DNA of 64,000 nucleotides. Origin: Paludibacteraceae bacterium. Its GTDB lineage: Bacteria; Bacteroidota; Bacteroidia; Bacteroidales; Paludibacteraceae. A model generated the notes under the pieces. It did not search any database. It had not been told where the DNA came from and saw only the letters and a program-made list of their open reading frames with translations. Numbering within the stretch: position 1 is the stretch's first letter; each line of letters begins with the position of its first letter. This document shows, piece after piece, positions 2,674 to 63,799 of the stretch. A program made the translations under genes and the position numbers. The DNA lies in assembly GCA_017456885.1 (NCBI GenBank), contig JAFTIM010000004.1:188851-252850 (forward strand). The letters are read 5' to 3'.

Positions 2674-3567
2674 ATGCTTTCGATTCTAATACCTGCCTAC
2701 AATTACGATTGCACACTTTTAGTGAAAGATTTACATAAACAAGTTATTGAGTGTAAAATTCCTTTTGAGATAATTGTTGCAGAAGACGGTTCTACAAAAT
2801 TTACATCTGAAAACCAACAGATTACAACTCTTATCTATTGCAAACATATCGTTTTGCAACAAAACATAGGACGTGCCGCCATTCGTAATTTTCTTGCAAA
2901 AGAAGCAAAATTTGAGAATCTGTTATTTATAGATTGCGACAGCAAAATTGTGAGCGACACTTATATAAAAACGTATGTAACCCACTTTGGAAAAATTGTT
3001 TTGGGCGGACGTATTTATAATAAACCTTCAAGTAAGAATCATACCTTATTGCCAAAATATGGGGCACGCGAAAAAATAGGAAAAGAACAAGAGGGAAAAA
3101 TTTTCACTTCTCCGAATTTCTTAATCCCAAAACAGATTTTCGATATTGTCCGTTTTGATGAAAATATAACACAATATGGTCATGAAGATACGTTGTTCGG
3201 TTGTGCTCTACATCACAACGGATTTAAATTTCTTTTAATTGACAATCCGATTCTTCACGACTCGATCGAAGATAATATCACATTTCTGCACAAAACTGAA
3301 TTATCTATCAATAATTTGTTATTGTTGATAAAACGGACTGATGATAAGGAACTACAAAAAATATCGAAATTGTACAGATGTTATCAAAAACTCCATACAA
3401 TAAAACTCACATCAGCCATTTCGACCTTATTTATCTCAACAAGAGAGTTTTTGCAAAAACAACTTTGCAGCTCAACCCCCTCGCTATTTCTTTTTAATCT
3501 TTACAAAATAGGCTACCTCTGCCATATTGCATCAAAAAGTCAGGACTTTTTGACAGAAAACGTATAA
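2674..3567 (+). CDS. Glycosyltransferase family 2
   Basis: N-terminal MLSILIPAYNYD...EIIVAEDGS and DCD motifs typical of GT-A/GT2. 297 aa. Confidence 0.8.
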   Translation: MLSILIPAYNYDCTLLVKDLHKQVIECKIPFEIIVAEDGSTKFTSENQQITTLIYCKHIVLQQNIGRAAIRNFLAKEAKFENLLFIDCDSKIVSDTYIKTYVTHFGKIVLGGRIYNKPSSKNHTLLPKYGAREKIGKEQEGKIFTSPNFLIPKQIFDIVRFDENITQYGHEDTLFGCALHHNGFKFLLIDNPILHDSIEDNITFLHKTELSINNLLLLIKRTDDKELQKISKLYRCYQKLHTIKLTSAISTLFISTREFLQKQLCSSTPSLFLFNLYKIGYLCHIASKSQDFLTENV

Positions 3568-3663
3568 AAAAGCTACGCTTTGGCAGAAAAACTTTTTTGG
3601 TATAAAATATGTTAGACTATTGGAAAAATTTAAACTATTAACTAATTATAAAAAATAAAAATC

Positions 3664-3933
3664 ATGAACATTAAACCATTAGCAGACCGTGTTTTAATTC
3701 AGCCGGCTGCAGCTGAGGAAAAAACTGTTGGAGGAATTATTATTCCTGATTCAGCAAAAGAAAAACCACTAAAAGGTATTGTTGTTGCGGTAGGAACAGG
3801 CTCAAAAGATGAGGAAATGATTCTAAAAGCCGGAGATACCGTTCTTTATGGCAAATATGCTGGTACGGAACTCGAACTTGACGGTGAAAAATATCTTATC
3901 ATGCGTCAATCCGATGTACTTGCAATCATTTAA
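3664..3933 (+). CDS. groES: Co-chaperonin GroES
   Basis: [14 protein letters not shown]...GGIIIPD signature, 89 aa, immediately upstream of groEL. Confidence 0.97.
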
Positions 3934-3941
3934 TAAAATAA

Positions 3942-5594
<1,653 letters not shown>

Positions 5595-5650: not shown

Positions 5651-6890
5651 TACCGAAATCGTTGTCTATTTTCAGAAATTTAAGCAACAAAAATCCGGGT
5701 ATCGTGCAAAGACAGACCCATATAAAAAACGGTGCATATCCCCAAGCCTCCTGAAGTTGTCCTGCAAACATACCGGGCAACATCATTCCAAGAGCCATAA
5801 TGCCCGTTCCAATAGCATAATGTGCTGTTTGGAATTCGCCTTTCGACATAAAAATCAAATACAGCGTAAAGGCAGTAAAACCGAAACCATAACCAAATTG
5901 TTCGAAAGCCACTCCCGATGCAATCAGCCACAACGACTGCGGTTGTGCGTATGCAAAATAAACATACACCAAGTTAGGGAGATTCATCATCAATGCCATT
6001 GGCAATAACCACGTTTTAAGTCCGTTTCGTGCAACTACAACTCCTCCCAAAATGCCACCTGCAAGCAATGCTACCACACCTATCGTACCCTTTATAAATC
6101 CCACACTTTCGGTCGAAAGACCTAATCCCCCGACTTCTGTTGGATCCAGTAAAAAAGGAGCGGCAATCTTCGCCAATTGTGCTTCTCCAAAACGATAAAG
6201 AAGTAAAAACAAAAAAGAGACAATGATATTTTTCTTTTTAAAGAAGCTAACAAACAATTTACCAATGTTTTGAAGCGAATGTTGCTCATCAATTTTGGGT
6301 TTCGGAAGTAAGAAATAATGATGCACAAATAGTGCAAGAAACACACCTGCCGAGAGCATAAATGTCAAACTCCAAGCATAAACGGCACTATTTATTTTTG
6401 TAGATAAATATCCCGCCAACATCACCAACAAGCCCTCACCTGTAACCGTAGCAATGCGGTAAAAGGTATTACGAATGCCCACAAACAGCGACTGCTCGTT
6501 CTCTTTCAGTGCCAGCATATAAAAACCGTCGGCAGCAATATCGTGTGTGGCCGAACTGAAAGCCAACAGCCAAAAAAAAGCCAACGTAGTCTGAAAAAAA
6601 TAATTGGTAGGAATAGTAAATGCTATTCCTGCCAATCCAACACCAATAAGCAATTGCATCGTGCATACCCACCAACGCTTTGTCTTTAGCAAATCTACAA
6701 AAGGGCTCCAAAACGGCTTAATAACCCATGGCAAATAAAGCCAACTTGTATAAAATGCAATATCGCTATTGGCAATACCCAAGTTTTTGTACATAATAAC
6801 CGAAACAGTCATTACCAAAACATAGGGCAAGCCTTCTGCAAAATAAAGTGTTGGCACCCATGCCCACGATGAATTACTTTTTTTATTCAC
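5643..6890 (-). CDS. MFS transporter, AmpG-like family
   Basis: 415 aa and multi-TM. N-terminus SWAWVPTLYFAEGLPYV...LPWVIKPFWSPFVD is typical of AmpG-type MFS permeases. It starts 11 nt after the trpB2 stop. Confidence 0.75.
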   Translation of the reverse strand: MNKKSNSSWAWVPTLYFAEGLPYVLVMTVSVIMYKNLGIANSDIAFYTSWLYLPWVIKPFWSPFVDLLKTKRWWVCTMQLLIGVGLAGIAFTIPTNYFFQTTLAFFWLLAFSSATHDIAADGFYMLALKENEQSLFVGIRNTFYRIATVTGEGLLVMLAGYLSTKINSAVYAWSLTFMLSAGVFLALFVHHYFLLPKPKIDEQHSLQNIGKLFVSFFKKKNIIVSFLFLLLYRFGEAQLAKIAAPFLLDPTEVGGLGLSTESVGFIKGTIGVVALLAGGILGGVVVARNGLKTWLLPMALMMNLPNLVYVYFAYAQPQSLWLIASGVAFEQFGYGFGFTAFTLYLIFMSKGEFQTAHYAIGTGIMALGMMLPGMFAGQLQEAWGYAPFFIWVCLCTIPGFLLLKFLKIDNDFGKK

Positions 6891-6901
6891 AATTCGATTC
6901 T

Positions 6902-8284
6902 TTAGAAATTAACTTTAGGCAACTCCGCCAAAGATTTTTTTATATCCTCGTCGGTTGGAATATAATCGTTCATGACGCCATCATTAAATTTCTGATATGC
7001 TACCAAATCGAAATATCCGGTTCCGGTAAGACCAAACACGATGTTCTTTTCTTCGCCTGTTTCTTTACATTTCAAGGCTTCGTCGAGTGCGACCTTAATT
7101 GCATGCGAGCTTTCGGGAGCAGGCAAAATGCCTTCGACACGTGCAAAAGTTTCAGCCGCTTTAAACACTTCGGTTTGCTCTACGCTTCGTGCTTGTATCA
7201 ATCCTTGATCATAAAGTTCGGAAACAATCGAGCTCATACCATGATAACGAAGACCTCCCGCATGATTGGCCGATGGGATAAAACTGCTACCCAAAGTGTA
7301 CATTTTGGCAAGTGGGCAAACTTTTCCCGTATCACAAAAATCGTATGCATAACTACCTCTTGTAAGACTTGGACAAGAAGCAGGTTCTACCGCAATAATC
7401 TGATAGTTGGCCTCCCCTCTCAACATCTCTCCTACAAACGGAGATATAAGACCTCCGAGATTAGATCCGCCACCTGCACAACCGATAAGCACATCGGCTT
7501 TGATTCCGTATTTGTCAAGTGCAGTTTTTGTCTCTAATCCGATTATGGACTGATGAAGCAACACTTGAGCCAATACGGAACCCAACACATAGCGATAACC
7601 CTCTTGTGTAGTCGCAGCTTCTACCGCTTCCGATATTGCACATCCAAGGCTTCCGGTAGTACCGGGGAATTCCTCGTTGATTTTTCTTCCGATATTCGTA
7701 TTCATCGATGGCGATGGGGTTACCTTTGCTCCGTATGTACGCATTACCTCTCGGCGAAATGGTTTTTGCTCATAAGAACATTTCACCATATACACCTGAC
7801 AATCCATATCGAAGTACGAACATGCCATCGAGAGTGCGGTACCCCATTGTCCGGCTCCCGTTTCGGTAGTAACACCTTTTAATCCTTGCTTTTTAGCGTA
7901 ATACGCCTGTGCAATTGCCGAATTCAACTTATGACTTCCCGAAGTGTTATTACCTTCAAATTTGTAATAAATATGGGCCGGAGTTCCCAACTTTTTTTCC
8001 AAGCAATAGGCTCTCACAAGAGGAGATGGGCGATACATTTTATAGAAAGTACGAATCTCTTCAGGAATATCGAAGAATGGCGTCGTATCGTCTAACTCTT
8101 GCTTTACCAACTCTTCACAAAAAACATGTGATAACTCTTCAGCCGTAATCGGCTTCAACGTGCCGGGGTTTAAGATTGGTGCCGGTTTTTTCTTCATATC
8201 GGCACGTACATTATACCATTGTTTCGGCATTTCGTTCTCCTCCAAATAAATTTTGTAAGGAATTTCTTTCATTTCTTCTTTCAT
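6902..8284 (-). CDS. trpB: TrpB-like PLP-dependent enzyme (tryptophan synthase beta, long TrpB2 type)
   Basis: 460 aa. It has a PLP-lysine context (NTSGSHKLNSA), a GAGQWG phosphate loop and a GGGSN motif. There are no adjacent trp genes. Confidence 0.9.
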   Translation of the reverse strand: MKEEMKEIPYKIYLEENEMPKQWYNVRADMKKKPAPILNPGTLKPITAEELSHVFCEELVKQELDDTTPFFDIPEEIRTFYKMYRPSPLVRAYCLEKKLGTPAHIYYKFEGNNTSGSHKLNSAIAQAYYAKKQGLKGVTTETGAGQWGTALSMACSYFDMDCQVYMVKCSYEQKPFRREVMRTYGAKVTPSPSMNTNIGRKINEEFPGTTGSLGCAISEAVEAATTQEGYRYVLGSVLAQVLLHQSIIGLETKTALDKYGIKADVLIGCAGGGSNLGGLISPFVGEMLRGEANYQIIAVEPASCPSLTRGSYAYDFCDTGKVCPLAKMYTLGSSFIPSANHAGGLRYHGMSSIVSELYDQGLIQARSVEQTEVFKAAETFARVEGILPAPESSHAIKVALDEALKCKETGEEKNIVFGLTGTGYFDLVAYQKFNDGVMNDYIPTDEDIKKSLAELPKVNF

Positions 8285-55532: not shown

Positions 55533-56816
55533 ATGGATGGTTACAGACATAGAATAATGGATAACCTGCTTGAAAAGAAGTTGCAGGCAAAGGGGGCTGT
55601 GCTGATAGAAGGTCCTAAATGGTGTGGAAAGACCACTACAGCAGAGGAGGTTGCAGCCAGCAAAATATTGTTGGCTCGAACTGATGTAAAAAATAGTTTC
55701 AAGAGCCTATTAGAGATAGATACCGATGCTGCACTATCAGGAGATACGCCCATGCTTATTGACGAGTGGCAGACTGTACCTAAATTATGGGATGCAGTGA
55801 GATACACTGTTGATCATCGCCGTAAAATGGGCCAGTTCATCTTAACGGGTTCTGCAGTCCCCGACAAGGAGGCTGAAGAGGAAAGAGAACATTCGGGAAC
55901 AGGACGCTTTGCTTGGTTAACAATGCGACCTATGACCTTGTTTGAATCTGGTGAATCAAACGGAAAGGTGAGTCTTGGCGATTTGTTTACTGCTCCAGAG
56001 AGAATACTGGAAAAGAATGAACTTAAATTGCAAGACATAGCTTTCCTTATTTGTCGTGGTGGTTGGCCTATGGCTGTCGGATTACCCGAAGAGGCGGCAT
56101 TGGAACAAGCGTTTGATTACTATGATGCTGTAACCAAAGAGGATATAACCAAAGTTGATGGAGTTAAAAGAGCTTCGGAGCGAGTGCAACGTTTAATGAG
56201 AGCATATGCTCGACATCAAGGGACACAGGCATCAGTAGCCACCTTAAAGGCGGACTTGAAAAATAATGATACTGCCACTCTTGATGATGACACTATAAGT
56301 TCTTACCTTGAAGCTCTGAGAAAAATATTCGTTGTAGAAGATATGCCGGCTTGGAATCCGAATCTTCGTTCAAAGACCGCAATTCGTACGGCAGATACAC
56401 GCTATTTTGTCGATCCATCTATTGCAACGGCTGCATTAGGTTTAGGTCCTGCCGATTTAATGAATGACTTAAAGACAATGGGCTTTTTCTTTGAAGCAAT
56501 GTGCGTAAGAGATCTGCGCGTGTTTGCAGAAGCATTAAACGGTAAGGTATATCATTATCGGGATAAAAGCGGTTTGGAATGTGATGCAGTTGTACATCTT
56601 CGAAACGGACAGTATGGACTTATTGAAGTCAAACTCGGAGGCGAGACCTTGATAAACGAAGGTATAGAAACACTGACTTCATTAGCCAAGCAGATTGACA
56701 CAACACGCATGAAAGCACCAGCCTTTAAGATGATATTAACGGCAACTGGCGAACATGCCTATCGTCGCCCCGAAGATGGAATTTACATTGTTCCAATAGG
56801 ATGTTTGAAACAGTAA
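55533..56816 (+). CDS. AAA ATPase with C-terminal DUF4143 (PD-(D/E)xK-like) domain (COG1373 type)
   Basis: Walker A GPKWCGKTT (55611-55637), Walker B MLIDEWQ, C-terminal ECDAVV...LIEVK (about 56580-56633). 427 aa. Confidence 0.8.
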   Translation: MDGYRHRIMDNLLEKKLQAKGAVLIEGPKWCGKTTTAEEVAASKILLARTDVKNSFKSLLEIDTDAALSGDTPMLIDEWQTVPKLWDAVRYTVDHRRKMGQFILTGSAVPDKEAEEEREHSGTGRFAWLTMRPMTLFESGESNGKVSLGDLFTAPERILEKNELKLQDIAFLICRGGWPMAVGLPEEAALEQAFDYYDAVTKEDITKVDGVKRASERVQRLMRAYARHQGTQASVATLKADLKNNDTATLDDDTISSYLEALRKIFVVEDMPAWNPNLRSKTAIRTADTRYFVDPSIATAALGLGPADLMNDLKTMGFFFEAMCVRDLRVFAEALNGKVYHYRDKSGLECDAVVHLRNGQYGLIEVKLGGETLINEGIETLTSLAKQIDTTRMKAPAFKMILTATGEHAYRRPEDGIYIVPIGCLKQ

Positions 56817-57101: not shown

Positions 57102-57193
57102 AAATATGTTTATACATTAAATTTATCTGAAACTTTCAATGTAAATTCTTATATAATTGTAAAACTTGGAACATCCATTAAAACTATAAAATA

Positions 57194-58315
57194 ATGATTG
57201 ACGAACGTATAGATTTGATTGAGGAGGAACAGAATGAGGAATTTTCCAATGATGATTTGTTCAATATCACTTCATGGGGAGCTGACCCCTCTGTTCGAGA
57301 GTTAATATTGCAATATAAAGAAGGTGATATAGAAAAACCTGAGTTGCAAAGAAAATATGTATGGACGAAAAAAGATGCAAGCCGATTTATTGAATCCTTG
57401 TTACTTGGACTTCCCGTACCAAGTATATTTCTCGCTAATATCGAGCAGTCTGGGAAACGCCTAATAATCGATGGATACCAAAGAATCCGTACTCTATATG
57501 ATTTTATAGAAGAAGGAATATGGCATGGTGACGATTCGGAATTTAAATTGTTAAATTCTAATATCATAAATGAACGATGGAGAGGTAAAGCTTTCGCAGA
57601 TTTATCAGAGAATGATAAGCGTAGACTTAAAAATTACACGATCCATGCTATTGTTTTTGAGCAAAAACATCCTTCAAATGATTCTGGTCTTTTCCAAGTT
57701 TTTGAAAGGATAAACACAAGCGGTACTACTTTGAATGACCAGGAAATCCGAAATTGTGTTTATCAAGGTGCGATGAATACCCTTTTATTTGCCGTCAATA
57801 AACACGATAAATGGCGTATTTTATACGGAGGTCAAGAAGAAGATTCCAGAATGATGGATTTGGAATTAATATTGCGTTTTTATGCCTTAAACTGCGGGAA
57901 TGTATATAATTCAGATAAAAAGAAAATCAGTCTAAAACAGACGCTAAATAAGTACATGCAAGATAACATGCATGCATCAGATGAATTTATTAATGAAAAG
58001 GAATCTGAATTTTGTTCTGCTATTGATTTTGTATATACAAACTTTGGAGAAGAAGCGTTCTTTAATCTACAAAATGATTTAACTAAAATTAGACGTAGAT
58101 TATATCCAACAGTTTTTGATTCAATTATGATTGCAACTTCTATTGCCCTCAATAGAGGATATGTTTACAATGGAGAGAATCTGAAAGAAAAGCGTATGAA
58201 CTTACTAAAGGACGCTATGTATAGAGACAGTATTTCTCAGGGAACTATGAAAGTAGACAACATTCGTACTCGTATTTCATTGGCTCTACGATTCTTATAC
58301 GGCATGGAACTATGA
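57194..58315 (+). CDS. DUF262 (ParB/Srx-like) domain protein
   Basis: ELQRKYVW...LLLGLPVPSIFL...IIDGYQR (DGQQR-type motif, 57470-57484)...FERINTSGTTL. 373 aa, with a helical C-terminal half and no DUF1524/HNH visible. Confidence 0.85.
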   Translation: MIDERIDLIEEEQNEEFSNDDLFNITSWGADPSVRELILQYKEGDIEKPELQRKYVWTKKDASRFIESLLLGLPVPSIFLANIEQSGKRLIIDGYQRIRTLYDFIEEGIWHGDDSEFKLLNSNIINERWRGKAFADLSENDKRRLKNYTIHAIVFEQKHPSNDSGLFQVFERINTSGTTLNDQEIRNCVYQGAMNTLLFAVNKHDKWRILYGGQEEDSRMMDLELILRFYALNCGNVYNSDKKKISLKQTLNKYMQDNMHASDEFINEKESEFCSAIDFVYTNFGEEAFFNLQNDLTKIRRRLYPTVFDSIMIATSIALNRGYVYNGENLKEKRMNLLKDAMYRDSISQGTMKVDNIRTRISLALRFLYGMEL

Positions 58316-58803
58316 TAAATAATCCAAATGCACAAACTGCTATAGATGACTGTAATGCGGAATTATCTCGTATTACGGGTATAATAAATGGTGTAGGTAG
58401 CACTAGCCCTCTTTCAGGTTACTTGACAAAATATTCTTTAATTAGAATTTGTGGAACCCTTGAGGTCTGTTATAAAACAATTATTGCAGACTATTATGAA
58501 AATCTTGCTCCTCAGTTAGGAAAGTACATTGGCTATCATTTAAGAGATGCGTCAATGAACCCTACATATGATAATATATGCCAAGCAATAAAACGTTTTG
58601 ATGATGTTAGACAGCAAAATTTTAAGTCCGCTGTTGGTGCTCTGACAAATACGGAAAGTTTAAAAGAATCTTTTTCTGTATTAAATAGAGAAAGAAATAA
58701 AGTTGCTCATGGTATAAACTCAACATTATCATTTAATGATATGAAGAGCCGCTTTTCTGAAGCAATAAAAGTTATAGAAGTTTTAGATTCTGTTATGCTC
58801 TAA
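58312..58803 (+). CDS. HEPN-like protein (R-x4-H motif; RiboL-PSP / MAE_18760-like family suspected)
   Basis: 163 aa and predicted to be all-helical. RNKVAHG (R128...H133, 58693-58710) matches the HEPN R-N-x3-H signature. Its ATG overlaps the DUF262 stop as ATGA. Confidence 0.6.
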   Translation: MINNPNAQTAIDDCNAELSRITGIINGVGSTSPLSGYLTKYSLIRICGTLEVCYKTIIADYYENLAPQLGKYIGYHLRDASMNPTYDNICQAIKRFDDVRQQNFKSAVGALTNTESLKESFSVLNRERNKVAHGINSTLSFNDMKSRFSEAIKVIEVLDSVML

Positions 58804-58840
58804 TCCATCTTAATATCTAGACCTAACCATAACATAAGAG

Positions 58841-58862
58841 TAGCCTGCATTCCAGCAGGCTA
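58841..58862. terminator. Bidirectional terminator between convergent HEPN and endonuclease genes
   Basis: TAGCCTGC-ATTCCA-GCAGGCTA hairpin followed by TTATTGTGTTTT. Confidence 0.55.
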
Positions 58863-58908
58863 TTATTGTGTTTTGATGCTTTATTCAATGATTATAAATC
58901 ACTGTTGT

Positions 58909-59637
58909 TTATCTAGCCATTATCGTGTGATAAACCTTATCAATAAACTTTTCATAGTCATTAAGTATCACTGCACCATCAGGAGCAATACTTGGGTATT
59001 GATGTCTGGAAAGTTCCATTGTAGGAATATTATTGCGATAATGCTCTAAATATTCTGTTTTGGTGGTTACTCTATATTCATTAACCTCTGGCATTGTTTG
59101 AACAACATATATCAATGTTTTATTGGGAGTATGATAAAAACAATCCACATCATCAAAAGAAAGGCGGCAATATTTCGTAATATTATGGTCGGTAAATTCC
59201 TCCCACTTGGATAATTCCCCACTATTTTTGTAATATGGGAGTTTGTCCAGAATGATGAAAATCTGGAAATAAGGGCAATTTGCTGTCCTTATATTCGCCG
59301 TTTCTCCTAGCATGTTTTCAAAGTAATTATTTGAATTCTGAGAATAATTCTGCATAACAAACTTAACCGCAATACCAGCAACATCCTTTTGTGTATGCCT
59401 GTTTTTTATGGTAATATCAACCATTTTATCAACATATCGCCCTTTAATACTAGCCTCTCTGTCATCGCCATATCCTTGTGATTTAACAACATAATTCGCA
59501 CCAAGCCTATTAGCAATATCGTGTGCGATTGCTCCATGAAGAGGCTTCAGTTTTGCTGTACTTCGTGAAGTACCTATTGATACAAAAGACTTAAAAGAGT
59601 CTAGAATCTTCTCCAAAAAAACTTGATTGGTCAACAT
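58909..59637 (-). CDS. Putative type II restriction endonuclease (assigned by context)
   Basis: 242 aa, same strand as the methyltransferase, and its first 47 nt overlap that gene's 3' end. It has a PD-(D/E)xK-like segment VDITIKN-x10-IAVKFV (D74...K92), but the acidic residue of the ExK triad is not obvious. Confidence 0.45.
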   Translation of the reverse strand: MLTNQVFLEKILDSFKSFVSIGTSRSTAKLKPLHGAIAHDIANRLGANYVVKSQGYGDDREASIKGRYVDKMVDITIKNRHTQKDVAGIAVKFVMQNYSQNSNNYFENMLGETANIRTANCPYFQIFIILDKLPYYKNSGELSKWEEFTDHNITKYCRLSFDDVDCFYHTPNKTLIYVVQTMPEVNEYRVTTKTEYLEHYRNNIPTMELSRHQYPSIAPDGAVILNDYEKFIDKVYHTIMAR

Positions 59638-61072
59638 ATTGTTTTTCTGATTTATATGTAATGTAATAATTTATATACTGCTGCACATCTTTTGAGTTAA
59701 ATGTATAGTATCCACCACTTTTGTATTTTTTGAGTAAACTTACATACTTTGCAAATTCTTCACTAATGAGAATACTTTTAATATCTTCAAAAGGGATATT
59801 CAGTTCACTGATTATGTATAATCCGCTATACAATCCACATCCAGCTTTTACAAACTCAATTTTCAGATCTTTTTCTGTGCGAAGTAAAGTGTTAATTGCA
59901 ACTTTATCTTTCCACACATCTGCTAACGCCTGTGTCCTACCGAACTCATAGAATGTTGGATATTCGGTTCTACCTTTTAAAAGAGCGCTTTTATGTTTGT
60001 TAAAATACTCGCAAATAGTATCATCTGAAAGAACTGTATTAGGTGATAATAATTTCCCTCTCTTGTCGTATGGGAATAAACAGTTATACCATTTACCAGT
60101 TGATGCTTTCAACGTCTTGATTGTAATATTAGATTCTGGGATTCCATCTCCGATAAAAACATTGTCAGCCAATGTAGCGAAACCATTCTTGACAGAAACA
60201 TAAGTAGGACATTTTTTGGTCTTAATGTCTCGTAATACATTGAGGCTTTCTTTGTCGGACAGATAGAAATATGAGTCTATAAAACAATCATCCAATTGTA
60301 TGCGGTCGCAGAATTTACGACAACGTTTTATGCTGTCAAAGGTATAGTAGTCAAAATGTTTATCTTTTTTATCCTTCGCAAATAAAGAGATAATAGTATA
60401 TGCCGTTGCATTTTCAAATGGCTGAAAGTGTCCTAAATCTACTAGGGAAACTAAATTTTGTTCTCTAAGAATATACAATCTCATATTATGAGCTGCAACA
60501 CTATTGAGCCATGAACTAGGAGTAATATAACATAATTTGCCAGTTGCATTTAACATTCTAAATCCTAATTCAAAAAATGCTAAATATAAATCTGTCATTC
60601 CACCATTGGCGAATTTGTATTGCTTAACTTCATCATATGAGGAATCTAAATTATGTACACGTACATATGGGGGATTACCAACAACAAAGTCCATTTTCCT
60701 GTCAAATTTTGTAATTGATAGCGAACTTTGATTATATAAATCCCATTTAATATTATCAAGCCCAAATCCTTGTGCGATTTGATTAAGATTTACAATACAT
60801 TGCTGATAAGCAATTTCATCGGTGTCTATTCCATGTATAAATTTTTCAAGATCTTGTTTTATGATACCACTATCTCTGCCTGCTTTCAATGATTCATTAC
60901 AATACCTTGCTACCACCGATTTTAAGAAAGCACCATCACCACAGCTATTATCAATGATATGCTTACCAATTATAGAGGATCCAACATATCCTGCATAATT
61001 CAGCATTTCATCAACAAGATATTGTGGCGTAAATACTTGTCCTATCTTTTTCGTCTTTTTATTTTCTTTCAT
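59591..61072 (-). CDS. Gamma-class N6-adenine DNA methyltransferase (Eco57I/TaqI-like) with a C-terminal target-recognition domain
   Basis: QVFTPQYLVDEM (motif X), DNSCGDGAFL (motif I), NPPY (motif IV, 60665-60676). 493 aa. Confidence 0.9.
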   Translation of the reverse strand: MKENKKTKKIGQVFTPQYLVDEMLNYAGYVGSSIIGKHIIDNSCGDGAFLKSVVARYCNESLKAGRDSGIIKQDLEKFIHGIDTDEIAYQQCIVNLNQIAQGFGLDNIKWDLYNQSSLSITKFDRKMDFVVGNPPYVRVHNLDSSYDEVKQYKFANGGMTDLYLAFFELGFRMLNATGKLCYITPSSWLNSVAAHNMRLYILREQNLVSLVDLGHFQPFENATAYTIISLFAKDKKDKHFDYYTFDSIKRCRKFCDRIQLDDCFIDSYFYLSDKESLNVLRDIKTKKCPTYVSVKNGFATLADNVFIGDGIPESNITIKTLKASTGKWYNCLFPYDKRGKLLSPNTVLSDDTICEYFNKHKSALLKGRTEYPTFYEFGRTQALADVWKDKVAINTLLRTEKDLKIEFVKAGCGLYSGLYIISELNIPFEDIKSILISEEFAKYVSLLKKYKSGGYYTFNSKDVQQYINYYITYKSEKQYVDQSSFFGEDSRLF

Positions 61073-61310: not shown

Positions 61311-62507
61311 TTACAAATCCTTTAATATCTGTGCATTTGCTCTATCAACTACGGCATTATCCAATGATGCCAAATAGATTTGTGTAGTCATCTCCGAGTC
61401 GTGTCCCATACCTTCACTGATAACAGATATTGGGATATTCTTACTCTTAGCAATGCTCGCCCACGAATGACGGGCTACATATAGGGTTAGAGGAATGGAT
61501 AATCCGACCATATTCGCAATCTCTTTTAGCGACTTGTTAGTGCGATATAGCACATTCTTATATTGGTTTCTATCGTATGGATATTTGAGAATGGGTAACA
61601 AATATGGGCTGTAGTAATCAGCATCGTGTTTATCCACAATCTCCTGCATACACCTCTCCCATTTAATGAATAATTGTTGCCCTGTTTTGCGTCTGCGGTA
61701 TGATAGTATGCCATTAGAGAGGTCTTTTTTCTTGAGGTATGCCATATCAATAAAAGACATTCCTCGTGTGTAGAATGAGAACATAAACATATCTCGAGCA
61801 AAGTCCAACGATGGTTGCAATGACAGGTCGAGATTCTTAATCCGCTTGATTGCCTTTAATGGAATGGCTCGCTTAATGGTCTTATCAATACCCGTATAAA
61901 CGTGTTTGAATGGGGTTCGATTGGTGGTCAAATCCTTTTCAACTGCACGGTTATAAACCGCTCGGAGTATTCGCATATAGAACGAAGAACTGTTTTTTGT
62001 TAGTCCTCTATTATGCAAATAAGCCTCATACATCAGCATTAAATCGGAGTCAATATCTTCCAATAAAATATCCTTATCATCTCTAAACTCCATAAAACTT
62101 TTAAGCGTGCAACGATAGGTCTCCGATGTGCGTTGCTTACCCATCTGCTGCAATTGGGCTATAACACCCTGCATAAAGTTGAACAACGATTGCTCATTGA
62201 CTTGCTTCTAGAATGTGGAGATTATATCATCAGCGCTGTACTTTATTCGCTTTTTCTCTAATTGGTTAATGACAGATTGTAGTCGCTTAATATCCCAATC
62301 AATATGCTCCTCGATGGATTGCAGATAGTTCTGTCGGCTGTTATTGGTGGCGATTATAGCATTGTTATCTTCATTCCATTCGTGCATAAAGAGTCGGTAA
62401 TCCGTCTTTAACTGACGGATTACACGATTCTGAATTACCTGATAATAGATTGTTCCCTCTTTGTCCTCATTTGTCGAGGGTCGAAACCTTACCTTGATAC
62501 TTGCCAT
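61311..62507 (-). pseudogene. Tyrosine site-specific recombinase (Bacteroides integrase type) interrupted by an in-frame TAG
   Basis: N-terminal 99 aa (MASIKVRFRPS..., arm-binding type) and C-terminal 291 aa (YTRGMS, ARHSWAS, GHDSEMTTQIY catalytic R/H-x-x-R/Y) are in the same frame. They are separated by a TAG at 62208-62210. Confidence 0.85.
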
Positions 62508-63022: not shown

Positions 63023-63799
63023 ATGGAAACAAACAACTTAGGATTGTACGAAGCAGCCAACGAACACGACGCTTGCGGTGTGGGTATGGTTGTCAATATT
63101 CACGGTAACAAGTCACACGAGTTAGTAGATTCGGCTTTAAAAGTATTGGAAAACATGCGTCATCGCGGAGCGGAAGGTGCCGACGAGGTATTCGGAGGTT
63201 ATCTCTATTTTCACAAAGCTCCCGATGCAAAGGCTTTCCACGAAGAGACGGTACGAAAACTATCGAAGCTGTACCTTTACGACTGCCTGCGCGCTAATAA
63301 AAGCCTTTCGGCCTGAGGCGTAGAGGGTCGCGTGCCATTTCTCGACAAGGAATTTCTCGACGTGGCAATGCGTCTTGCCCCCGAGTCGAAAATGTGTTCG
63401 GGCAATACCATCGAGAAAAAAATCGTGCGCGAAGCCTTTGCCGATATGCTTCCCTACAATGTGGCTTGGCGACAAAAAGAGCAGTTCAGCGATGGCGTAG
63501 GTTACAATTGGATTGACACGTTGAGAGCCATCACTGCCGAAGCCGTCAGCGATGAACAAATGGCGCATGCTGCCGAACGCTTCCCCATCAATACGCCGAT
63601 GAACAAGGAGAAATACTACCATCGTTCGATATTCGAGGAGCATTTCCCGAGCAAAAGTGCGGCTTTGAGTGTTCCACACGAAGCCAGCGTAGCATGCTCC
63701 ACTGCCATTGCTCTTGAATGGGACAAAGCATGGAAAGGGAAAAACGAGCCAAGCGGTCGTGCCGTAAAAGATGTTCACGAAAAAGCATACGAAAAATAG
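63023..63799 (+). pseudogene. gltB'-'asnB fusion remnant (5' end of glutamate synthase large subunit joined in frame to the 3' third of asparagine synthase B) with an internal TGA
   Basis: Residues 1-54 ([14 protein letters not shown]...[10 protein letters not shown]) are GltB-like. From about 63185 the sequence [26 protein letters not shown]...RVPFLDKEFLDVAM...AWRQKEQFSDGVGY is AsnB-like. TGA at 63314-63316 replaces the Trp of the SAWGVE motif. Confidence 0.8.

Follow-up and report, generated by a model that had tools for sequence, protein, structure and literature searches.

PD-T4-2 is a two-gene anti-phage system, listed as "DUF262, HEPN," that was obtained by functional selection from Escherichia coli ECOR65 (Vassallo et al. 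2022, Nat Microbiol, PMC9519451). On a low-copy plasmid, PD-T4-2 protects E. coli against phage T4, and when it is deleted from its native strain, plaquing by T4 increases dramatically. HHpred identified the first protein (PD-T4-2A) as DUF262 (PF03235)/DndB/ParBc and the second protein (PD-T4-2B) as HEPN_RiboL-PSP (PF18735, 97.8%) and then MAE_28990 (PMC9519451). Here we describe a similar locus from a gut bacterium. The window that we analyzed is a stretch of 64,000 nucleotides from a metagenome-assembled genome (MAG) of Paludibacteraceae, a family of the Bacteroidales (assembly GCA_017456885.1, contig JAFTIM010000004.1, positions 188,851 to 252,850). Our subject is a pair of adjacent genes near the end of this window: gene A, which encodes a DUF262 protein, and gene B, which encodes a HEPN protein.

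In GmrSD, BrxU, and SspE, DUF262 is a nucleoside triphosphatase (NTPase) that senses modified DNA, and cleavage is attributed to the DUF1524 half of the enzyme; a similar sensing role has been proposed for NsnA, from the Menshen system (PMC10952713, PMC12065111). The role of the DGxQR motif of these proteins in hydrolyzing nucleoside triphosphates (NTPs) comes from work on BrxU, HEC-06, and NsnA. Among HEPN proteins, DARNA (also known as PD-T7-3) is a tRNA-cleaving ribonuclease (RNase) that is activated by DNA. The original prediction for our locus, which was made from the DNA sequence alone, noted that surveys of HEPN proteins mention ParB/DUF262 neighborhoods. This was correct, since the 2013 survey by Anantharaman et al. 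(Biol Direct, PMC3710099) includes the entry "Ribo L-PSP-HEPN ... operon with ParB." The original prediction also stated that no experimental characterization was known. This was mistaken, as PD-T4-2 has the same architecture, was validated against T4 (PMC9519451), is included in PADLOC, and has been reviewed. The kind of system is thus already known, validated by experiment, and catalogued, and the pair in our window is not a new system.

What is new here is the near-absolute pairing of this subfamily of DUF262 with RiboL-PSP-type HEPN across many phyla, the mobility of a 1.7-kb cassette, and the co-divergence of the two genes. Going by architecture and profile matches, the window's pair is a divergent Bacteroidales member of the PD-T4-2 kind. 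We think it likely that the pair is a self-contained, horizontally mobile, PD-T4-2-type cassette that acts against phages or other mobile elements, with A as the sensor and B as the effector. The features of the cassette are as follows (coordinates are within the window; aa, amino acids).

57194..58315, plus strand: gene A, 373 aa, ATG start, a ParB-like DUF262 (GmrSD_N) protein
58312..58803, plus strand: gene B, 163 aa, ATG start, a RiboL-PSP-type HEPN protein
58312..58315, plus strand: ATGA stop/start overlap; the stop of gene A shares 4 nucleotides (nt) with the ATG of gene B
57248..57280, plus strand: N19-DDLFNITSWG-29 motif at the N-terminus of gene A, aa 19–29
57470..57484, plus strand: DGYQR (DGxQR) motif, the ParB/DUF262 nucleotide-binding site, gene A aa 93–97
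58693..58710, plus strand: R128-x4-H133 HEPN catalytic motif (RNKVAH) of gene B
57118..57193, plus strand: AT-rich leader, conserved upstream of gene A and mobile as part of the cassette; presumed to provide the promoter and the ribosome-binding region
58839..58864, no strand assigned: GC-rich hairpin with a T-run, between gene B and a convergent 242-aa open reading frame (ORF)

Both overlapping ORFs, the ATGA junction, and every motif that the original prediction had quoted are present where it placed them. Translation of gene B is coupled to that of gene A through the ATGA overlap. Both ORFs are long for the surrounding DNA, which is 32–36% GC, and each protein has hundreds to thousands of homologs. 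Along with the selection and motif data below, this puts the pair well beyond a chance finding. The exact proteins are in NCBI for the Paludibacteraceae MAG, as MBQ7388213.1 ("DUF262 domain-containing protein") and MBQ7388214.1 ("hypothetical protein").

Gene A had been assigned to DUF262, and a search with hidden Markov models (HMMs) agrees: it matches PF03235 (GmrSD_N) at aa 35–190, with E = 1.5e-28. This was the only match in a Pfam scan of all 373 aa, and no DUF1524 or HNH domain was found, so the nuclease half of GmrSD-like enzymes is missing, as had been claimed. Besides the DGxQR site, gene A contains the motifs ELQRKYVW (aa 50–57), LGLPVPSIFL, and FERINTSGTTL (aa 170–180). D93, G94, Q96, and R97 of the DGxQR site are invariant in 31 close homologs, and their conservation is 90% or higher across 123 non-redundant homologs from many phyla. 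The NDDLFNITSWG motif is also invariant among the close homologs and is conserved over the 123 homologs across phyla; residues 1–29, which hold it, have an AlphaFold predicted local distance difference test score (pLDDT) of about 41. We infer that this motif may be a partner-binding, dimer-contact, or dimer-swap element. Proteins of the gene A type retain about 50% identity between Bacteroidota, Bacillota, Pseudomonadota, and other phyla.

In the AlphaFold2 model of gene A (pLDDT 79.9), the N-terminal half resembles ParB and the C-terminal half is helical. The best Foldseek match is BrxU (7p9k; E = 1.9e-4, probability 1.0, with a limited likeness overall, TMq 0.26), followed by ParB, Noc, and KorB, which hydrolyze CTP. 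A profile search of PDB sequences also matches BrxU 7p9k. Among PADLOC's models, gene A matches NsnA (8.3e-68; aa 24–364 align to profile positions 43–375 of 385) and PD-T4-2_A (PDLC04027, 7.2e-54; aa 22–366 align to positions 28–359 of 363). In PHROGs, it matches phrog_2598 (2.9e-68). We predict that gene A encodes an NTP-binding DNA sensor whose helical C-terminal half is of the "ParBDB" type of NsnA.

Gene B had been described as a HEPN protein with an R-x4-H motif, and the HMM search bears this out: aa 14–161 match Pfam's HEPN_RiboL-PSP (PF18735) with E = 7.6e-14 and 52.5 bits, above the cut-off of 28.4 bits. Matches to HEPN_Cthe2314 and MAE_28990 were weaker and fell under their Pfam cut-offs. 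R128, H133, and E51 are invariant in an alignment of 61 relatives (26–48% identity), and R128 and H133 are also invariant in a second alignment. An exhaustive search through 1.84 billion cluster representatives gave 318 matches at E ≤ 1e-3; R-x4-H is present in 117 of the 119 full-length cluster representatives. The AlphaFold2 model of gene B (pLDDT 94.8) is all-helical, with seven helices. We predict that gene B is an RNase effector. Comparing the HEPN protein to deposited phage genomes with tblastn gave no matches. We also looked for fusions of DUF262 to HEPN as Rosetta-stone evidence, and rejected the candidates: the long matches P0303 and P0325 were spurious or low-complexity, and in P0234, P0324, P0214, and P0195 the HEPN protein is extended by sequence that has no assignment.

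We scanned one genome per species with peptide patterns from gene A only and found 80 loci. In all 79 that could be evaluated, an ORF for a RiboL-PSP-type HEPN protein lies directly downstream; the 80th locus ends at a contig edge. These loci span Bacteroidota, Bacillota, Pseudomonadota, Verrucomicrobiota, Acidobacteriota, Planctomycetota, and Cyanobacteria, along with one bacterium of the candidate phyla radiation and one bin labelled as archaeal. Conversely, scanning metagenomes with patterns from gene B only gave 45 loci, and DUF262 is directly upstream in 44 of the 44 that could be evaluated. Both genes are present in 8 of 8 viral contigs and in each of the 18 loci that we examined individually. 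Among those 18 are an E. coli plasmid of 3.9 kb, a plasmid from Hymenobacter, IncX1 plasmids from both E. coli and Salmonella, and an E. coli locus that is embedded in a prophage. (The E. coli variants, namely plasmid pLR-27_3, the IncX1 plasmids, and the prophage-embedded locus, are not near PADLOC's archetype models.) In total, a DUF262 gene is directly followed by a HEPN gene in 149 of 149 evaluable loci. The expectation that the pair would co-occur across genomes is thus confirmed, and the pairing is close to obligate.

The junction between the genes is tight, and most junctions overlap. Of the 126 non-redundant ones, 51 show the 4-nt overlap, 7 overlap by 1 nt, and about 32 by 8–20 nt; in all others the genes are separated by no more than 37 nt. 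The two proteins have also diverged together: across 133 pairs, the identities of A and of B to the window's proteins are correlated (r = 0.94), with B diverging faster. Against their closest relatives, both genes have a ratio of nonsynonymous to synonymous substitution rates (dN/dS) of 0.05–0.07, so both are under strong purifying selection. Identical proteins are found on 13–20 contigs.

We also noticed a locus in an Alistipes sp. MAG (L019, positions 3486–5114) where the two genes differ in their divergence: A shares 95% identity with its counterpart in the window (dS 0.33), and B shares only about 81% (dN 0.12, dS 0.72). This discordance suggests that alleles have recombined within the cassette.

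When we compared the DNA of related loci, only 57118–58891 was common to loci in other genomic settings. Besides the two genes, this block takes in about 76 bp on the upstream side and, downstream, about 88 bp that include the hairpin. Because nothing else is shared between contexts, we consider the pair to be a self-contained mobile cassette of 1.7 kb. The cassette of locus L009, for instance, is 93% identical to the window's. With blastn, similarity to L009 and L010 (92.8%) begins at 57118, and with megablast it begins at 57162; the genes upstream differ. We aligned the upstream regions of four loci, and a generic sigma-70 scan of the leader gave a single weak match (57166–57195). The leader presumably has the promoter role. 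At the other end, terminator-like sites are predicted on both strands at 58839–58864, and this hairpin falls within the block that is common to L009, L010, and L099. It is likely to be a bidirectional terminator that closes the cassette. We looked for an RNA antitoxin or repeats of the sort known from AbiF and type III toxin-antitoxin systems; Rfam gave no matches, and the cassette has no meaningful tandem repeat or repeat array.

We propose that gene A's product is a ParB-like DUF262 NTPase sensor with a DNA-binding helical C-terminal half, like NsnA and like the sensor half of GmrSD, BrxU, and SspE. A and B would be made together by translational coupling and would probably form a complex that holds the HEPN dimer inactive. 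We suggest a direct complex because of the tight co-translation, the co-divergence, and the lack of a third conserved gene. During infection, A would bind the invader's DNA; the signal may be modified DNA (as in T4) or a phage-specific state of the DNA. DNA binding, together with binding or hydrolysis of a nucleotide at the DGxQR site, would change the conformation of A, and this change would allow the HEPN dimer to cleave RNA (tRNA, mRNA, or rRNA) with its R-x4-H site. Cutting RNA would stop translation, and the infection would be aborted or stalled. DARNA/PD-T7-3 provides a precedent for signalling from DNA to an RNase. The general logic of a sensor and a HEPN effector, which the original prediction had suggested, is compatible with our data; we infer the complex, the trigger, the RNA target, and whether the outcome is abortive or is direct immunity.

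In a more specific version of our proposal, the ParB-like protein is a nucleotide-dependent clamp or sensor of DNA that turns on a separate HEPN RNase in trans, without an ATPase transducer or a fused nuclease. The DDLFNI-SWG motif might then be the coupling element, the lineage might be functionally distinct from the PD-T4-2 of ECOR65, and in gut Bacteroidales the expression of copies in capsule loci (see below) might be tied to phase variation of the capsule. We offer this version tentatively, as possible and somewhat unlikely. If it is true, then this logic, with a ParB sensor and a HEPN protein in trans, is not yet described for any defense system.

Several observations weigh against reading the pair as a PD-T4-2-type defense cassette. 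Gene A scores better on PADLOC's NsnA model than on PD-T4-2_A. Gene B hits PD-T4-2_B with only E = 0.0015, and the limit that we used was 0.001. (Close relatives of gene B match this model at 1.5e-06 and 3.2e-06. Among diverse members of the HEPN family, PD-T4-2_B, or PDLC04028, is the top PADLOC family and is matched by 45 of 61, with a best value of 1.6e-10.) Comparing the model of gene B to the PDB with Foldseek gave no significant match; HEPN structures appear only at template modeling (TM) scores of 0.3–0.5 and E > 0.5. These low-probability hits are 2hsb, 7ae8, 1ylm, 4nqf, and 1jog, and they include AF_0298, HepT, and YutE. A profile search of PDB sequences with gene B gave no matches either. 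As Foldseek gave nothing significant, the HEPN call for gene B rests on the Pfam profile and on the conservation of the motif. The pair's membership in PD-T4-2 rests on architecture and profiles; among the cluster members listed, the accession of the ECOR65 archetype (record QOYX01000002, with RCO39066.1 and an unannotated second ORF) did not appear. The window's lineage is distant from the archetype, and so the anti-phage function is extrapolated from PD-T4-2 in E. coli. And reviews place PD-T4-2, along with Menshen and Dazbog, among the DUF262 systems that lack DUF1524, and describe these as largely uncharacterized (PMC10952713, PMC12065111). On a practical note, gene B is a "hypothetical protein" in GenBank and is missed by PADLOC's B model at 0.001, so members of this sort may escape automated annotation.

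The location of some copies is another difficulty. The pair is nearly the sole cargo of the 3.9-kb E. coli plasmid, and on IncX1 plasmids it lies directly after the replication gene. These locations fit equally well with an addiction module. So we also considered that the pair might mainly be a toxin-antitoxin-like module that stabilizes the mobile elements on which it is carried, with the HEPN protein as the toxin and the DUF262 protein as the antitoxin, and with phage defense as a secondary role. The gene order and overlap are like those of type II toxin-antitoxin operons, the pair occurs on integrative and mobilizable elements with relaxases and integrases, and HEPN toxins with protein partners are well known, such as HepT-MNT. 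However, the "antitoxin" would be a 373-aa enzyme-like protein that has an invariant NTP-binding motif and is itself more conserved than the toxin, which is atypical of antitoxins. Furthermore, Pfam found no MNT domain or DNA-binding autoregulator domain in gene A, and a system with the same architecture gave protection against T4 in its native strain (PMC9519451). Defense and addiction are also compatible with each other. Overall, we consider it unlikely that addiction is the main role.

Another possibility is that gene A is itself a nuclease: a ParB-like DNase that carries out type IV-like restriction of modified or foreign DNA, with the HEPN protein as an accessory (a regulator that binds nucleotides or nucleic acids, or a second, RNA-directed arm) rather than the sole effector. 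Anantharaman et al. classed ParB/DUF262 with the restriction-modification-type endoDNase domains that are associated with HEPN (PMC3710099), and gene A has a weak match to PADLOC's REase_II (2.1e-08). Gene A is also the more conserved partner, and the phage used to select the archetype, T4, has glucosyl-hydroxymethylated DNA, as in the case of GmrSD. Yet in GmrSD, BrxU, and SspE, cleavage is assigned to the DUF1524 half, and DUF262 is the NTPase and sensor. The R-x4-H of the HEPN protein is invariant across the family, which favors catalysis by it over mere binding. We therefore view a nuclease activity for gene A as quite improbable.

Finally, it is very improbable that the pair is decaying, or is carried without function in a degenerate island, as might be suspected from the neighboring integrase, which is split into two ORFs in the window, and from the fragmentary flanking genes gltB and asnB: both ORFs are intact, their catalytic motifs are intact and invariant, identical proteins recur on 13–20 contigs, the integrase is whole in sister strains L145 and L146, and the selection data (dN/dS of 0.05–0.07) exclude decay.

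The cassette lies within a stretch of 32–36% GC (about 56.6–62.9 kb), and the core genes on either side are 45–55% GC. Its neighbors are as follows.

55533–56816: AAA_14+DUF4143 ATPase, PADLOC candidate family PDC-S01 (1.7e-64), of intermediate GC content (about 42%)
58909–59637, minus strand: 242-aa ORF, overlapping the methyltransferase gene by 47 bp
59591–61072, minus strand: type II N6-adenine methyltransferase, Eco57I-like
61311–62186 (291 aa) and 62208–62507 (99 aa), minus strand: tyrosine integrase (Arm-DNA-bind_5, SAM_5, and catalytic domains), split
63023–63316: GATase_2 fragment of 97 aa, the N-terminus of a glutamate-synthase-like gene, just past the integrase
63332–63799: C-terminal fragment of Asn_synthase, a 155-aa ORF in the window that is called as a 143-aa gene in sister contigs

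The proposal of a mobile defense island held up, as the low-GC stretch contains an integrase and a methyltransferase; the restriction enzyme that had been described beside them is placed by position only. Specifically, searches of Pfam, PADLOC, NCBIfam, PHROGs, PDB sequences, and plasmids gave no match to the 242-aa ORF, which by position would be the cognate restriction enzyme. The integrase is also split in L144 and L150 (where it is called as 99-aa and 287-aa genes), and L145 and L146 have one uninterrupted gene of 398 aa. The split could be either a strain polymorphism or an assembly error. The flanking core genes gltB and asnB are reduced to fragments, an ammonium transporter is next in the sister contigs, and this arrangement of fragments is kept in all of the sister contigs (L144–L150). 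Several kb of nitrogen-assimilation genes seem to have been deleted beside the island. We did not find convincing direct repeats that would bound the island as attachment sites. We also did not find an empty site, because every contig with the identical flanking DapL gene has the island as well.

We also considered the ATPase upstream as a third component and rejected it. The DUF4143 ATPase in the window is unrelated to the ATPase_2 protein that is upstream of the pair in L009, L010, and L099, and neither of these upstream ATPases recurs among 143 loci, so the ATPase is not part of the system.

Some of the other loci are of interest for their contexts. In four loci (L001–L003, positions 6001–7610, and L004, 6001–7613), DUF262-HEPN pairs lie within capsular-polysaccharide loci of Bacteroidales, on the same strand as the capsule genes, and their gene A homologs are 67–70% identical to the window's. 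In L001–L003, an integrase and a NusG/UpxY-like gene precede the pair, and genes for a flippase and an acyltransferase follow it; in L004, the pair is between genes for a glycosyltransferase, Wzy, and an ATP-grasp protein. Judging from these arrangements, one possibility is that the copies are co-transcribed with phase-variable capsule operons. The family is abundant in Bacteroidales of the human gut (one Odoribacter-type allele alone was found in 692 blocks of the assembly collection), so it may affect phage therapy and the ecology of gut phages.

The small E. coli plasmid pLR-27_3 (L005) is 3948 bp and non-mobilizable, and its four annotated genes are the pair, a VbhA-family antitoxin, and a fragment of a replication gene. 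Its A protein is 47.7% identical to the window's and is found, as the same protein, on 159 contigs from Enterobacteriaceae; its HEPN protein is 30% identical to gene B (E = 5e-26). On the Hymenobacter plasmid (L007, positions 3479–5044), the DUF262 partner is 521 aa and has an N-terminal MTaX1 (methylase-associated X1) domain, which parallels the extra N-terminal sensor domains that have been described for NsnA of Menshen. Genes for HNH and Z1-domain proteins adjoin the pair on this plasmid.

In L015–L018 (positions 5877–7489), a 58%-identical allele of the HEPN protein and its DUF262 partner are carried on integrative mobilizable elements. Upstream of the pair are genes for a relaxase and a NikA-like protein, and a Vsr gene is immediately downstream. 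After the Vsr gene come Dcm-type methylases (L015 and L016) and AAA_5 (McrB-like) genes, with a faint match to RE_LlaJI in L015; L017 has another set of genes downstream of Vsr. This is a recurrent region of defense cargo whose downstream modules vary.

How does the pair in the window compare with the known systems? It shares with PD-T4-2 a two-gene operon with DUF262 first and HEPN second (about 165 aa in PD-T4-2), the same top domain calls for A and for B, the lack of DUF1524, and an R-x4-H near residue 130 of B. It differs in that it is distant in sequence and its host is a gut member of the Bacteroidales, not E. coli. With the family of Anantharaman et al., it shares a RiboL-PSP-type HEPN protein with R-x4-6-H that adjoins a ParB/DUF262 gene. 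That association was listed without statistics or function, while we have counted it, at 149 of 149 evaluable loci. The value of our analysis lies in these comparative statistics and in the question of mechanism, rather than in the discovery of a new system.

Gene A has the architecture of NsnA from Menshen (NsnABC; Millman et al. 2022; PMC12065111), with ParB-DUF262 and a helical, ParBDB-like half. The NsnA model is gene A's best in PADLOC, and in both cases a sensor would be coupled to an RNase-type effector. But the pair is accompanied by neither NsnB (an ABC-ATPase with DUF3696) nor the inPIN-BECR protein NsnC; a HEPN gene is downstream instead, and the next gene is convergent. As there is no NsnB or NsnC, the pair is not Menshen. 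Like GmrSD, BrxU, and SspE, gene A has an N-terminal DUF262 with DGxQR, and BrxU (7p9k) is its best match by structure and among PDB sequences. In contrast to those enzymes, gene A lacks the HNH half (DUF1524), and the presumed effector is a separate protein of the RNase type. As it has no DUF1524, the pair is not a GmrSD-type enzyme, and because its effector would be a separate RNase-type protein, its target is probably RNA rather than DNA.

With DARNA/PD-T7-3, HepT-MNT, and AbiF, the pair would share a HEPN effector with R-x4-H that is inactive until infection. It differs from DARNA, which is one protein with its own domain for binding single-stranded DNA, by having a ParB-like partner in trans. 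It also differs from HEPN-MNT (HepT/MntA): the partner of gene B is DUF262, there is no nucleotidyltransferase domain in the pair, gene B belongs to the RiboL-PSP subfamily, and HepT structures match gene B weakly. HepT is controlled by AMPylation and AbiF by RNA, whereas the HEPN protein in our window has a ParB-like NTPase as its partner, and the DUF262-HEPN family could serve as a clean and compact model for how such an NTPase controls an RNase.

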